Below are positions 52,501-56,060 of a DNA stretch of 64,000 nucleotides, piece by piece. The notes under the pieces were generated by a model. It ran no database searches. It was not told the origin of the DNA and worked only from the letters and a program-made list of their open reading frames with translations. The DNA comes from a virus. The stretch is from UHGV virus genome UHGV-1493261, one strand, 5' to 3'. How positions within the stretch are numbered: the stretch's first letter is position 1; each line of letters starts with the position of its first letter. The translations under genes and the position numbers were made by a program.

Positions 52501-52709
52501 TCGATGGGATGGGTTGAAAGACTACACGCTTGCACTGGTACTGCCTTATGGGAGAGCGCGTCAGGAGTCGAACCTGAAGTCGTAAGCGTAGAGAAAGCTA
52601 TTTGCATTTCACTATCCCCGCTCCGATTTTCTTAACTTCCTAAACACCCCGATTACGAGAGAGTCGACATGCACATCTTCTAACTCTTCAGGAAGTCACG
52701 CCCGTAATT

Positions 52710-52798
52710 TGGCGGAAGGTGAAGGATTCGAACCTTCGGGGGCTAAAAGCCCCACTCGATTAGCAGTCGAGTCCCTTAAACCTCTCGGGCAACCTTCC
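52710..52798 (-). tRNA. tRNA-Ser (anticodon GCT)
   Basis: Manual cloverleaf: acceptor GGAAGGT/ACCTTCC, anticodon loop CTGCTAA, long variable arm GGGGCTTTTAGCCCC, T-loop GGTTCGAATCC, encoded CCA. Confidence 0.7.
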
Positions 52799-53016
52799 AA
52801 TTTGGACGGGCTTCGCACCCGATTGAGCATTTGATCTGCCGTAGCCCAACTCCCCGCGCTTCACAGCGCCGATTGGTTAACTGGTGACCAGTGCCTTCTG
52901 GTTAGATCCCCTGGAACTTTACAGGCTTCGCGCCCAACCATTTCTGGAAGTTGAGGCATCGTTTCCGATGTGGAGTCCCCTCATTTTACACAGCTGGCTG
53001 CAACGCTTACCGTGTT

Positions 53017-53100
53017 TGGTGTGAGTGGATGGATTCGAACCACCGCGCTGTTACGGGGAGATTTACAGTCTCCTGCATTCGACCGCTCTGCCACACTCAC
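53017..53100 (-). tRNA. tRNA-Tyr (anticodon GTA)
   Basis: Acceptor GTGAGTG/CACTCAC, anticodon stem GGAGA/TCTCC with loop CTGTAAA, 12-nt variable arm, T-arm GGTGG-TTCGAAT-CCATC, encoded CCA. Confidence 0.65.
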
Positions 53101-53216
53101 ATTTGGTGGGTGTTACTATCGTCGTCTTCGGATTCCGTTCGGCTATTGGACGTCGCTTCAAGAGCTTGTCGGTCGCGTACTTCTTGCCTATTCACTTTCG
53201 TTCACACCCATAATTC

Positions 53217-53291
53217 TGGCGGTGCCTCAAGGACTCGAACCTTGCTATCACGGATTAACAGTCCGCCGCTTCACCATTTAGCTAAAGCACC
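53217..53291 (-). tRNA. tRNA-Asn (anticodon GTT)
   Basis: Acceptor GGTGCTT/AGGCACC (one G-U), anticodon loop CTGTTAA, T-arm CAAGG-TTCGAGT-CCTTG, discriminator G, CCA. Confidence 0.7.
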
Positions 53292-53299
53292 TGAATATT

Positions 53300-53375
53300 T
53301 GGCATGCCCTCCAGGACTCGAACCTGGGTTGTACGGTTTTGGAGACCGACCTCATAGCCGCCAGATCAAGGGCAC
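53300..53375 (-). tRNA. tRNA-Trp (anticodon CCA)
   Basis: 76 nt with canonical numbering: T-arm CCAGG-TTCGAGT-CCTGG, anticodon loop CTCCAAA, acceptor GTGCCCT/AGGGCAT, CCA. Confidence 0.7.
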
Positions 53376-53443
53376 ACACCTTACAACGAACTATACTGTA
53401 TAAAGGTTATTGAAACAAACGTTTATTTTATTCAACCATAATA

Positions 53444-53520
53444 TGGTGATCCTGATTGGGTTTGAACCAATGACCAATGAATTATGAGTTCACTGCTCTA
53501 ACCGACTGAGCTACAGGACC
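53444..53520 (-). tRNA. tRNA with CAT anticodon (elongator Met or Ile-lysidine type)
   Basis: Acceptor GGTCCTG/CAGGATC, canonical D-arm TAGCTCAGTCGGTTAGAGC, anticodon loop CTCATAA, T-arm ATTGG-TTCAAAC-CCAAT, CCA. Anticodon stem lacks initiator features. Confidence 0.7.
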
Positions 53521-53736
53521 AAATTATTGTGTGACCAACCAAGGACTGTCAACCCTTTATCCCGTTTGTGCATGATCGGTTCATGCAGGCCTCTTTGTGC
53601 TGCCTCACGGCATGCGCTTCTGTTGGTCATTGGCTTACACTGTGGCCTCACAACAGGCGTTTATTTTTCCAGGGCTTTCCACTTGCAAGTCTTGACCATA
53701 CAGGGATACGGGCTTGCAAGATCGGGTTGGACACAA

Positions 53737-53811
53737 CTTTGATGGCTCTGGTATTAAAGATCCCGCGTCACCCATAGACATGGTTTATAAATCCAGAGCC
53801 ATCAAAGTTGC
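53737..53811. repeat. 18-bp perfect inverted repeat around a ~39-nt AT-rich spacer
   Basis: CAACTTTGATGGCTCTGG (53737-53754) and its exact reverse complement CCAGAGCCATCAAAGTTG (53794-53811). Confidence 0.7.
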
Positions 53812-55490
53812 AACCAATGTCGTAACTCGCAGCTTCCATACAGAAGCAACTTGTCCTCTAACACTCGGACCAAACGAGGCTGGCTGGTTGATTCAGAGCC
53901 GCTGGTTGATTCAGCAAGCATGGGTTGATAGCCCGGCAACATAGAATCACCCAATGCTCTCTCAAGTTCATAAATCGAAGTGCCCTGACTCAACAGTATG
54001 GCCCAATATGCTGTTATCGTCCACCGGATTGGCCGCCCAATTTGTAGATCAACCTTTGGGTTTAAGATAAATTGCCAAGGCACTTCGATTTGTGTGCCCT
54101 TCACCTGCCAGGGATCAGGGCTGATGGCAAGACTTCGCTCACATCTTTCAAGATACTCGTGAGAATATCCTCAAAGATGTGGTGCCGTTTTAGGGAGTCG
54201 AACCCAAATGTTCGGCCAGCGCTGACCTTACATCCCATCTGACTTAGGCAACCCACCTCTGCTTACTCAGGAGCTTATCCCCTTTGGACAGTCAGATGTA
54301 ACGGCATTTTATTTAACAATTCATTCAACTGATAACTTCAGGGGACCACTCTCATCTCCCCACATTTCGACCGCCCGGGACGGTTTAGTGGTACGTCACT
54401 TGGTCTGTTACATGGTAGGAGCCGATTCTCCCTCGAATTACCTCTTGTTCGTATGCCTACAAACAATTTCACAGATTGCTGACAAGTTATCATGTGAATG
54501 AATTGTCATTGTATGCCCTGACTTATTAATCACATCTCAGGGCCGCGATGCGCCAGATTCTGTTACAGGGAACTGGAATACCCCGCTGACTTATAGGCTA
54601 TTACGCCGCCATCAGAACTTCGGAATCATTAGCAGTTATTTGCTTGGTCAGTTTCTAAAAACCCGCAAAGTCACGCACAACGAAAACGAAAACCTGTTTG
54701 AGTCCTAAACGTACCTGTCTTAGTCTCACAACGCTATGAGTGGCCAGGACTCAAACAGCTTGCCGTTCAGTAGGTTAACTATACTTTGTAACCCGTTATT
54801 GATAAAACTTTTTATTTTGTTGGCGAGGGTGTCACCATCGATTTACCGGAACTTACGCATCCGGCCTCGCCTGTTGGTGCTCCTTCGAATCCGGGAAGAT
54901 CAGTAGGAACTATGAATCAAGTTAATTCAACCAACAGGAACCTTGTTGCCCTTTGACGCAACATTATGAACCCTCTGTGAAGACTCATAATGTTGTCGGC
55001 GTGATGGAGATTAGCGCCCCCGACCTCCCCTTGTGTTGGTGTCGACTTGCCAACGGGGTGCTCTCTGATTCTGAGCTAATCACGCTACAACAGGGAGTTT
55101 CGTTCTCCGACGGTCAAGTGCGTCCACTGACACCATGCAAGGTGGATATTGACTTATGGAGCCGGAGTCCTCGTCCTAGGACTGTGCTTGGCCTCAGCCT
55201 TTACACCGCTGGTAGCCCGACTCTTTACACCATAAAATTTACTATACTACAGCCCAACTAATTTGAAAAGTCCTCTCCTCTTTGAGCTACACTGCCCACA
55301 GCAGTGCGGACGAACCTGAACTCAAAACCGGATGCGCCGAAGTGGGCGCCTGTTTACCGGACTGATCGGGTCGACCCAGGAGAGAGCAGGTAATCCCGAT
55401 CAGAAGGATGAGGAGTAACATCATGTAAAACATAGTGTTCCCTCCCTTCCATGCAAATAACTTTACTGCAATTATTTATTGAATAAAGCG

Positions 55491-56060
55491 TTATTTTAAC
55501 ACTTCTAACTTCACAATACGACGCAGAAGGTAAACATATTCGCCAGCAGCTTCATGCGTCATATAATGGGTAGAAGGTGTGGAATGAGTGTTCTGGGTTT
55601 CTTTTAATCCAACGCGTTCAGCCCAACCATTAATAGAGTTCCCATAGAAACCGATAATCGCGCCAAAATAAATGCGCCCGCTTTCTGGCTCTAAAACATA
55701 GTTGACAGTGAAGCAAATGTCAGAACGAATAGACTCCAGTTTCATACCAACACGACCTTCAGAGAATTCGTTACGAACATATAAATGACGGAAGCGATCG
55801 CGCCGTGCTTGTGATGATTCTTCCAATTCTTGTCGAAGTGAAGAAGTTATGTCAATATTAAATGAAAATGTTGGATTTCGTAAATCAGAACGGGCCAACT
55901 CTAACGCAGATTCAATAACGCGACGGAAATTGATACTTTTACCTGTCAGGCGTTTCACTTCATCGGTGATTGTTCCAAAAGGGATTTTCGTGGCGTGTTC
56001 CCCTTCGTATTTTGCTAACAAAGGAATAATGTGTTTCATGATTGCTGTGTTAATGTGCAT
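55491..56060 (-). CDS. Hypothetical protein (AT-rich gene)
   Basis: 189-aa ORF in an AT-rich segment between the RNA island and the late structural genes. Confidence 0.45.
   Translation of the reverse strand: MHINTAIMKHIIPLLAKYEGEHATKIPFGTITDEVKRLTGKSINFRRVIESALELARSDLRNPTFSFNIDITSSLRQELEESSQARRDRFRHLYVRNEFSEGRVGMKLESIRSDICFTVNYVLEPESGRIYFGAIIGFYGNSINGWAERVGLKETQNTHSTPSTHYMTHEAAGEYVYLLRRIVKLEVLK

Follow-up and report, generated by a model that had tools for sequence, protein, structure and literature searches.

A non-canonical tRNA-like RNA gene beside a tmRNA-like tag RNA in Ackermannviridae phages

The virus genome UHGV-1493261, of which we analysed a stretch of 64,000 nucleotides (nt; the window), contains on its minus strand, from position 54305 to 54180, a gene for a non-canonical transfer RNA (tRNA)-like RNA that keeps the upper half of a tRNA and lies downstream of a transfer-messenger RNA (tmRNA)-like RNA that we call the tag RNA. 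The original prediction, made from the letters alone, had proposed here a tRNA-like RNA of about 126 nt with a T-loop, a discriminator and CCA; all of these features are present on the minus strand at the coordinates it gave, and our analysis confirms the gene. The whole unit measures 126 nt from G1 to the encoded CCA and is delimited by its sequence, 199 homologs, a consensus structure with four compensatory pairs and the edge at G1. We number it from G1, so that position n corresponds to 54305 − (n − 1) on the minus strand.

From 54305 to 54180 the minus strand reads GCCGUUA-C-AUCUGACU...AGUCAGAU-G-GGAUGUAAGGUCAGCGCUGGCCGAACAUUU-GGG-UUCGACU-CCC-UAA-AACGGC-A-CCA, and its predicted fold is a four-way junction of acceptor stem, arm A, hairpin B and T arm. 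The 5′ acceptor strand GCCGUUA (54305–54299) faces AAACGGC (54190–54184) with six of seven positions paired, A7 and A116 (A·A) being left unpaired; pairs 1–6 with 117–122 form in all 12 variants of an unambiguous alignment of distinct copies, which includes that of Salmonella phage GEC_vB_GOT (GOT). By sequence and variant alignment the 3′ strand continues through the discriminator into the encoded CCA (54190–54180 in all), the discriminator at 54183 being A in the window and CCA occupying 54182–54180. The position of the D and anticodon arms is taken by arm A (63 nt, 54298–54236), in which a 9-bp stem, CAUCUGACU (54298–54290) paired with AGUCAGAUG (54244–54236), closes a 45-nt apical region. 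Within this arm lies a 22-nt motif, AAAGGGGAUAAGCUCCUGAGUA (54285–54264), that is identical in 12/12 variants, including the 81%-identical GOT copy, and can fold as a GGGG/CUCC hairpin with an AUAAG loop; we infer that it is a putative binding site. Hairpin B (30 nt, 54235–54206; GGAUGU..GGUCA-GCGC-UGGCC..ACAUUU) takes the place of an anticodon arm or a long variable arm and ends in a GCGC tetraloop, with no 7-nt loop. The T arm, GGG/UUCGACU/CCC with a canonical T-loop (54205–54193), is invariant apart from one G-C to G-U change. With a 63-nt arm and a 30-nt tetraloop hairpin in place of the D and anticodon arms, the unit cannot decode. The minimum free energy of the fold is −45.8 kcal/mol (z = −2.5; 3/200 shuffles equally good), and a motif scan of positions 52601–55600 for a T arm followed by 7 nt, N and CCA with an acceptor partner returned the unit as the sole site that is not an annotated tRNA.

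The unit occurs in 199 phage records of the Ackermannviridae, 128 of them at 95–99% identity, and the window comes from a phage of this family close to Agtrevirus vB_CECAV_050. The 3 kb around it form a mosaic, mostly 80–95% identical with many gaps, in a region that carries homing endonucleases. Across the 12 variants, 98.4% of the pair cells of a 41-pair consensus hold standard pairs, and four pairs are changed on both sides yet still paired, compared with 0.4 expected (0/500 shuffles); the 9-bp stem has two of them, the acceptor stem and hairpin B one each. Sliding the partners by 1–3 columns lowers pairing to 34–47%, and RNAalifold independently yields the same structure. The comparison across related phages that the original prediction had proposed therefore finds a conserved structure rather than its absence. 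The predicted acceptor partner GCCGTTA, with six of seven pairs, is conserved, U5-A118 being replaced by C-G in GOT, and so is the predicted 9-bp internal stem around a long insertion, in which GOT has two two-sided changes (U-A to C-G and C-G to U-A) and other pairs vary by G-U transitions. In hairpin B an A-U pair is G-C in GOT, with U-G/U-A and C-G/U-G alternations in other phages; the apical pairing of arm A is not kept in GOT. The discriminator is U in Kuttervirus and varies between A and U among copies otherwise about 97% identical.

The conserved block begins exactly at G1 in four unrelated upstream contexts (...GACAAU, ...CCCAAA, ...UUUUAU and ...AAAAU, each followed directly by GCCG), and every copy ends in NCCA, the boundaries expected if RNase P and the CCA define the unit. 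The GOT copy, the sole divergent copy of the unit and the only one that BLAST detects in that phage, occupies 156879–157015 at the end of its record, just upstream of rIIA, with neither a tag RNA nor a tRNA within the 9 kb upstream of the unit; it keeps the main helices by compensation and the 22-nt motif unchanged, and it was either transposed or is placed there by an assembly artefact. In Enterobacter phage fGh-Ecl02 (L009 1407–1564), the 5′ half of the unit is replaced by a non-coding module near-identical to one of Gamaleyavirus PGN829.1 (L003), and of the unit's own sequence just hairpin B, the T arm and the 3′ strand are left; this is a natural recombinant, in which the element is probably inactivated.

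No homologs were detected outside the Ackermannviridae. A pattern scan of IMG/VR for divergent units gave 12 loci, all on contigs of Ackermannviridae size, a metagenome scan gave one true copy and four spurious high-GC matches, and the covariance model of the unit found no homolog in 81 loci of other phages. Outside the family the best matches of this model are canonical tRNAs (T4 tRNA-Thr, 16.8 bits, E 0.24), and in alignments to tRNA isotypes tRNA-Thr has the best mean score, the top single matches including tRNA-Ser(GCT); the sequence likeness suggests that the unit may have descended from a tRNA gene. It is probably a new, family-restricted variant among phage tRNA-like stable RNAs.

Standard tools do not call the element. 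ARAGORN reports five tRNAs at 52710–53520 of the window, no tRNA at the element and no tmRNA, and Rfam at gathering thresholds returns those same five tRNAs only. The Rfam search that had been suggested as a check thus places no family above its gathering threshold there, and the earlier view that no standard cloverleaf fits is borne out by both programs and by a consensus structure with a tetraloop hairpin and a 63-nt arm. A cloverleaf with D arm, 5-bp anticodon stem and 7-nt loop (RF00005/ARAGORN) is lacking; the acceptor stem, a UUCRANY T-loop, the discriminator and CCA are present in the 12 variants, with a T stem of only three uninterrupted pairs. A permissive Rfam scan yielded as its sole match at the element a 13-nt T-loop to positions 349–361 of the tmRNA model RF00023 (10.5 bits).

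The unit also differs from the standard and permuted forms of tmRNA. The alanine identity pair of tmRNA is G3:U70 in the acceptor stem; this pair is absent from the unit, which has C3-G70 in 12/12 variants. The tag frame and pseudoknots described below are not nested between acceptor strands, both of which lie 3′ of the tag frame. A one-piece tmRNA closed by a distant 5′ strand, GCUGUUU (54759–54753), which matches AAACGGC at 7/7 positions including a U3-G70 wobble, was ruled out because the UUU of that strand sits in a hairpin that covaries between the window and phage Ag3, which has no unit, and because it is the local 5′ strand GCCGUUA that covaries with the 3′ strand in GOT. Permuted tmRNA (RF04321, RF01849, RF01850) does not fit either: the gene order is reversed, the score is 21 bits against a threshold of 47, and there is no duplex above shuffles. 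Compared with tmRNAs reduced to the tRNA-like domain (TLD), only the T arm of the unit resembles tmRNA, and the element is twice the size of such TLD-only forms, with two extra arms. Of the large structured phage RNAs that accompany tRNA genes, neither GOLLD nor ROOL matched in the window or 14 related loci at gathering thresholds, nor in a local E-value scan. No phage SmpB was found in the Ackermannviridae, matches to it being host genes at prophage borders and a few unrelated phages, and the neighbouring proteins have no RNA-related domains.

The tag RNA occupies positions 54694–54515 of the minus strand and is recognized by sub-threshold tmRNA matches, a tag frame, pseudoknots and an antisense leader. 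The leader (54693–54656) is followed by an A-rich spacer, by the tag frame GCU AAU GAU UCC GAA GUU CUG AUG GCG GCG UAA (ANDSEVLMAA*, 54633–54601), which has double stop codons in the window, and by two pseudoknots (54585–54553 and 54552–54515, the second with a GAUUAAUAA loop). The frame is preceded by AAAUAACU, where E. coli tmRNA has AAAUAGUC-GCA. A permissive Rfam scan gave sub-threshold matches to permuted and alpha-proteobacterial tmRNA models at 54549–54740, and sub-threshold beta matches were also seen; matches of the tag RNA fall in the coding-piece part of these models and score 21–31 bits for RF04321, 18–22 for RF01850 and 15–18 for RF01849. At tag RNA loci Rfam returns nothing above threshold, ARAGORN finds no tRNA-like domain belonging to the tag RNA and no tmRNA in the 129 loci scanned (L001–L129), and PGAP has no annotation at the corresponding places in E. 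coli.

BLAST places the tag RNA stretch in four unrelated phage lineages, always in gaps free of open reading frames (ORFs) beside tRNA genes; the lineages are Caminolopintovirus, Gamaleyavirus and Triduovirus (both Schitoviridae) and Chaseviridae, and the tag RNA is also found in many prophages and P1-like phage-plasmids. It matches 718/5426 complete E. coli genomes (554 places on plasmids of about 90–100 kb, 220 chromosomal); on the plasmid examined, the P1-like p1493-4 (L147, about 2490–2680), the tag is ANDDLMMVAA* and the RNA is flanked by the dmt terminator on one side and tRNA-Asn/tRNA-Thr on the other. In IMG/VR, a pattern scan identified at least 120 loci. The peptides comprise 18 different 10-residue tags with the consensus A-N-D/E-x-x-x-L-A/M-A/V-A. 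Third codon positions of the frame carry 11.0 bits of variation, first positions 6.3 and second positions 5.3, and the final Ala uses all four codons; from this codon pattern the frame looks translated. In our reading of the alignment, the stems of the two H-type pseudoknots after the tag differ between phages with complementarity kept, as in CGGGG/CCCUG and CCAG/CUGG versus CAAGG/CCUUG and CCGA/UCGG, or GGCCCUGA/UCAGGGC versus GGCGGGAG/CUCCCGCC.

An exhaustive survey of 543 phage genomes in 2014 found ssrA only in mycobacteriophages, and further cases lie outside its dataset, in Bacillus phage G and DS6A (PMC4131195). In papers on Ackermannviridae, tmRNA is mentioned only in citations of ARAGORN, and in the literature outside subscription journals we found no paper on phage antisense pairing to tmRNA. 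Subscription journals aside, neither the unit nor the tag RNA has apparently been described.

The leader of the tag RNA, about 40 nt long, is antisense to nt ~66–107 of E. coli ssrA (L148). Aligned to the antisense strand of ssrA, the full set of 92 leaders from unique modules has a median score of 34 (range 21–43), compared with 15.5 ± 2.3 (maximum 26) for shuffled leaders, and the great majority map to ssrA nt ~65–105. The antisense segment reaches from the 3′ strand of pseudoknot 1 (AAAAAGCCGC) across the A-rich stretch that sets the frame to the resume codon and codons 2–6 (...ACGACGAAAACUA). At locus L002 the leader is UAGUUUUCGU-G-AGCGAC-UUUGCGGCUUUUUA, perfect antisense being UAGUUUUCGUCGUUUGCGACUAUUUUUUGCGGCUUUUUA. 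The leader–ssrA duplex reaches −49 kcal/mol for L002 (shuffles −32 ± 3.4) and −53 kcal/mol for the window (shuffles −37 ± 3.4), with 0/200 shuffles as good in either case. The leaders show no complementarity to their own tag region, against which they score a median of 12, lower than against host ssrA in 92/92 modules. This complementarity suggests that the tag RNA may anneal to host tmRNA and then either substitute its own template beside the host tRNA-like domain or block the host template. With a leader antisense to host tmRNA, the tag RNA would thus need no acceptor from the tRNA-like unit.

The unit itself behaves differently in such comparisons. Its predicted base pairing with the tag RNA (RNAduplex, −75.2 kcal/mol) is no better than that of shuffles (−71.7 ± 5.2), a 5-bp match, AGCAG, to the resume region is not kept in Kuttervirus, and a local alignment of the unit as antisense to host tmRNA scores 19, at background level. 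BLAST found no match of the unit in E. coli genomes, in a search that is insensitive to short matches.

In 15/16 informative loci the tag frame lies 129–328 nt upstream of G1 on the same strand, and at four loci (L001, L035, L115 and L140), one of them that of the closest relative, the gap between the second pseudoknot and G1 is no more than about 15 nt. In the window an extra segment of about 180 nt (54497–54319, minus strand) is interposed between tag RNA and unit; it is missing from that relative, L001, and is about 80% identical to a segment of Triduovirus TR2 directly upstream of its tRNA cluster (L005 1501–1680); its presence in both indicates that non-coding modules are exchanged between unrelated phage families. 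Ag3 has the tag RNA and no unit, and other phage families have different elements downstream of the tag RNA, so that the tag RNA does not depend on the unit. When each tag RNA was searched strictly for a tRNA-like unit on its downstream side, one was found at only 36/118 loci, indicating that the association between unit and tag RNA seen in Ackermannviridae is not universal.

Further modules were seen around these RNAs. Downstream of the tag RNA, most loci outside the Ackermannviridae (L002, L003, L010–L129) carry repeated modules joined by CACAAC/GUUGUG junctions, hexamers for which alternative pairings are possible; among these modules are a long helix, GGUAAGAGCAUU...AGUGCUCUUUCC, whose contents vary and at times include a T arm, and a tRNA-like unit of some 130 nt, UGUGGUG...T arm...CRCCACA-A. 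The leader of the tag RNA is, in one subclass, immediately preceded by a unit ending ...UGCUCUU-U-CCA. In the place of the extra 180-nt segment of the window, Kuttervirus has a mini tRNA-like element directly 5′ of the 126-nt unit (CBA120, L006 1524–1590; also L061, L073 and L076), which begins AUGGGAG..., has a 7-bp hairpin with a GAAA loop and ends GAAGG-UUCGAGU-CCUUC-CUCCAAU-C-CCA, with a G3×A70 mismatch. A second mini element, GGCGAGG...GUGUGG-UUCGAUU-CCACAC-CCUCGCC-A-ACA, precedes the tag RNA in CBA120 (L006, about 1113–1187) and Ag3 (L007, about 1415–1489); of this one the window keeps only a deletion remnant at about 54818–54840 of the minus strand, CGAUGGUGA followed by CACCCUCGCCAACA.

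The unit lies in a minus-strand stretch of about 2 kb without a long ORF, upstream of the five-tRNA cluster; no minus-strand ORF of at least 110 amino acids (aa) occurs at 53520–55490, and a 150-aa plus-strand ORF (52951–53403) overlies the tRNA genes. Consensus scanning places a sigma-70-like promoter candidate, TTATCA-16-TATAGT, upstream of the tag RNA (54805–54778, minus strand) and a further promoter-like site at 55269–55241. The best such site, TTGACA-18-AATAAT (53552–53523, 11/12), directly precedes tRNA-Met on the minus strand, which suggests that the five tRNAs would additionally be served by a promoter of their own that does not depend on the non-coding leader region. No terminator-like site was found on the minus strand until 52492–52471, after tRNA-Ser. 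Given the promoter-like sites and the lack of a terminator-like site before that point, the unit would most simply be part of a long non-coding/tRNA precursor, and we infer that it may be co-transcribed with the tag RNA. Directly after the CCA, comparison of the window with CBA120, Ag3 and GOT delimits a hairpin, CAUCUUUGAGG...CUUGAAAGAUG (54179–54142, minus strand), the base of which stays paired with changed sequence in other genera, where the loop is far longer.

Two other sequences of the surroundings deserve mention. Positions 53721–53818 hold a long near-perfect inverted repeat on both strands, CAACUUUGAUGGCUCUGG...CCAGAGCCAUCAAAGUUG, which is the source of spurious microRNA-model matches and recurs with changed sequence in Ag3 and fGh-Ecl02. 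At 55168–55205 (minus strand), UGUAAAGGCUGAGGCCAAGCACAGUCCUAGGACGAGGA resembles nt 287–326 of E. coli tmRNA in sense orientation; its score of 25 is at the edge of the shuffle distribution (maximum 26), and the likeness may be due to chance.

Bacterial RNase P recognizes an acceptor stem plus T arm with an RCCA-type end. Because the unit has features for RNase P cleavage and 3′ trimming, and its evolutionary boundaries coincide with the cut sites, it may well be excised like a tRNA. We put at about even the prospect that tRNA-processing enzymes excise the tRNA-like RNA and in doing so also set the 3′ end of the upstream RNA. The unit would be transcribed within a long non-coding/tRNA precursor; host RNase P would cut 5′ of G54305, 3′ trimming would halt at the encoded CCA (54180), and the same RNase P cut would create the 3′ end of the tag RNA. 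The released 126-nt RNA would probably have its own function through the invariant 22-nt motif, since that motif and the maintained isolated GOT copy point to an activity of the RNA itself, the obvious candidate being that of a decoy or cofactor for a protein that binds tRNA or tmRNA. Several observations weigh against this model. The T stem is short, with three G-C pairs, a 5-bp version requiring a U-U mismatch, and together with the A-A mismatch at the base of the acceptor stem it could weaken recognition. All four compensatory changes come from a single copy, that of GOT, which is 81% identical, so that they may represent few independent events, and an assembly artefact could account for the odd genomic position of this copy. 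The tag RNA occurs without the unit in Ag3-like phages and most other families. A pure processing-handle role would leave the invariant internal motif and the GOT copy unexplained. That the discriminator can be A or U is uncommon for an RNA with a specific aminoacylation identity and offers no clue to function.

The structurally constrained GOT copy, which has no tag RNA or tRNA neighbours, and the invariance of the 22-nt motif would also suit a free-standing tRNA mimic or decoy that acts independently of the tag RNA, by binding and titrating a factor that recognizes tRNA or tmRNA (for example SmpB, EF-Tu, the CCA-adding enzyme, RNase P, a modification enzyme or an anti-phage nuclease of the host), much as has been proposed for TLD-only tmRNA. 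The T arm is 12/13 identical to that of tmRNA, T4 RNAC and RNAD show that phages retain stable RNAs in tRNA clusters, and the tmRNA of phage DS6A consists of little beyond the TLD, a similar molecule being a strong inhibitor of tmRNA, perhaps by titrating SmpB (PMC4131195; PMC11915505). Such a decoy would leave unexplained the tight positional link to the tag RNA in 15/16 loci; the unit also lacks G3:U70 and shows no tmRNA-type feature beyond the T arm, its only Rfam match covering 13 nt, and we consider a decoy of this kind possible, though rather unlikely. The same positional link could be taken to mean that the unit is the acceptor half of a phage-encoded split tmRNA, aminoacylated and entering stalled ribosomes together with host SmpB, to which the tag RNA would be joined 5′ or non-covalently as the template. 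The tag RNA has no tRNA-like domain of its own, the unit is the nearest downstream element with acceptor, T arm and CCA in 15/16 loci and in some of them begins about 15 nt after the last pseudoknot, the two together are about the size of a tmRNA, and arm A is placed like helix P2 of the tmRNA tRNA-like domain. A split tmRNA is nevertheless improbable, as C3-G70 in place of G3:U70 provides no alanine identity, the discriminator varies between A and U, and the template would be attached at the 5′ side of the acceptor stem, a place where RNase P cuts and where the ribosome would not tolerate an extension. In addition, complementarity between unit and tag RNA is at the level of shuffles (−75 versus −72 ± 5), the modules occur apart in Ag3, GOT and other families, and the antisense leader would supply the host tRNA-like domain in trans, removing the need for the unit.

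We also considered that the element might be without present function, being either a tRNA gene in decay (a tRNA-Thr or tRNA-Ser that took up insertions, for instance) or a sequence that resembles one by chance. Canonical tRNAs are the best outside matches of the covariance model, local alignments favour tRNA-Thr and tRNA-Ser, ARAGORN at lowered score thresholds (-ps70, -ps80) reports a weak tRNA-Leu(CAG) on the 3′ 77 nt only, and the region is a mosaic with homing endonucleases. A pseudogene would not, however, be better conserved than its flanks in 199 genomes, nor keep its helices by compensation in an 81%-identical copy or its exact G1 and CCA edges through four rearranged contexts, and decay or chance is thus very improbable. 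Short ORFs overlap the element, among them a 51-aa ORF with a GTG start (54256–54101, minus strand), and some GenBank records of relatives annotate plus-strand 'hypothetical proteins' here. That the element belongs to a small protein gene is more improbable still: homologs differ by 1-nt indels, one of which (GOT) falls inside the ORF, Kuttervirus replaces the sequence 3′ of the CCA with a much longer hairpin that destroys the minus-strand ORF, substitutions preserve base pairs, and the annotations differ between records and are absent from most.

Beyond excision of the unit by tRNA-processing enzymes, we raise tentatively, and think it less likely than not to hold in full, that unit and tag RNA form one phage operon that reprograms host trans-translation, in which the leader duplex would replace pseudoknot 1 and present the phage spacer, resume codon and tag. 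The tag added to rescued proteins would then be ...ANDSEVLMAA (or one of the LAVA type) rather than ...ANDENYALAA, and the tRNA-like unit would be a maturation and stability module of the tag RNA, possibly also a cofactor engaging SmpB or another tRNA-binding protein.

Among known systems, T4 RNAC is the closest in kind. T4 RNAC (species 1 RNA) and RNAD are small stable RNAs of unknown function (PMC3014915; PMC9697503). They lie at the end of the T4 tRNA cluster; like the unit, they are encoded next to the tRNA genes of a lytic phage and on the same strand, and they are of similar size (139 and 119 nt versus 126 nt). RNAC (L130 1909–2047, minus strand) folds with z = −4.6 and shares the predicted four-way layout, with an acceptor-like stem, a long arm, a hairpin and the T arm CCGGG-UUCGAAU-CCCGG; unlike the unit, it encodes no CCA. 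There is no detectable sequence homology between the unit and RNAC or RNAD, the covariance model of the unit matching only tRNA-Thr in the T4 tRNA region, and BLAST with rnaD finds Straboviridae only. A 10-mer common to the unit and RNAD, CCUGAGUAAG, was rejected as a sign of homology and judged a chance match because its AGUAAG half varies among RNAD homologs. RNAD (L130 2054–2172, minus strand) begins with a T-arm-like hairpin, ACCGG-GUCGCUA-CCGGU, and in a comparison of five Tevenvirinae genera it is invariant or almost invariant over 48 nt at the 5′ end and 24 nt at the 3′ end, with a variable middle. No tag RNA was seen in the 4.5-kb T4 tRNA region (L130), which had no search aimed at one.

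The TLD of tmRNA resembles the unit in having an acceptor stem, a T arm, CCA, no anticodon and a long helix in the position of the anticodon arm. The T arm of the unit is 12/13 identical to that of E. coli tmRNA, the TLD-only tmRNA of DS6A is likewise encoded by a phage, and the unit adjoins a tag-encoding RNA, albeit with the tag frame outside the acceptor strands. It differs from the TLD in C3-G70, in an extra 30-nt hairpin and in being missed, beyond the T loop, by ARAGORN and the Rfam tmRNA models. TLD-only forms of tmRNA are known and may titrate SmpB (PMC4131195; PMC11915505).

Two further arrangements bear comparison with the phage pair. The two-piece permuted tmRNAs of alpha- and beta-proteobacteria and cyanobacteria have their acceptor piece upstream, with a 3′ strand that forms base pairs with the 5′ end of the coding piece. 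The phage pair shares with these the separation of tRNA-like and coding RNAs; the phage unit differs in being downstream, closed on itself and without complementarity to the tag RNA. In MALAT1 mascRNA and in tRNA punctuation, a tRNA-like fold lies downstream of an RNA, and one RNase P cut makes the 3′ end of the upstream RNA and releases a small CCA-ended RNA. The MALAT1 mascRNA arrangement matches that of loci of the L001 type, where processing of the unit would, by analogy, proceed in the same way; those systems are eukaryotic or organellar, and the unit has strongly conserved extra arms that a mere handle would not need.

The unit would add a well-supported new family to the small class of non-decoding, tRNA-shaped stable RNAs in the tRNA clusters of lytic phages, in which T4 RNAC and RNAD have gone without an assigned function for decades, and its clean boundaries make it easy to delete or express. 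Its main value lies in its context, the link to a widespread, unannotated RNA apparently designed to pair with host tmRNA. If the tag RNA works as its sequence suggests, phages would reprogram or block ribosome rescue by base pairing, and viral takeover of this pathway would have a new form, in which a template RNA makes use of the host tmRNA's tRNA-like domain in trans. It would also mean that tmRNA finders and genome annotation miss a whole class of RNAs. Some phages depend on tmRNA, according to old observations, and this dependence would then gain a directly testable mechanism.

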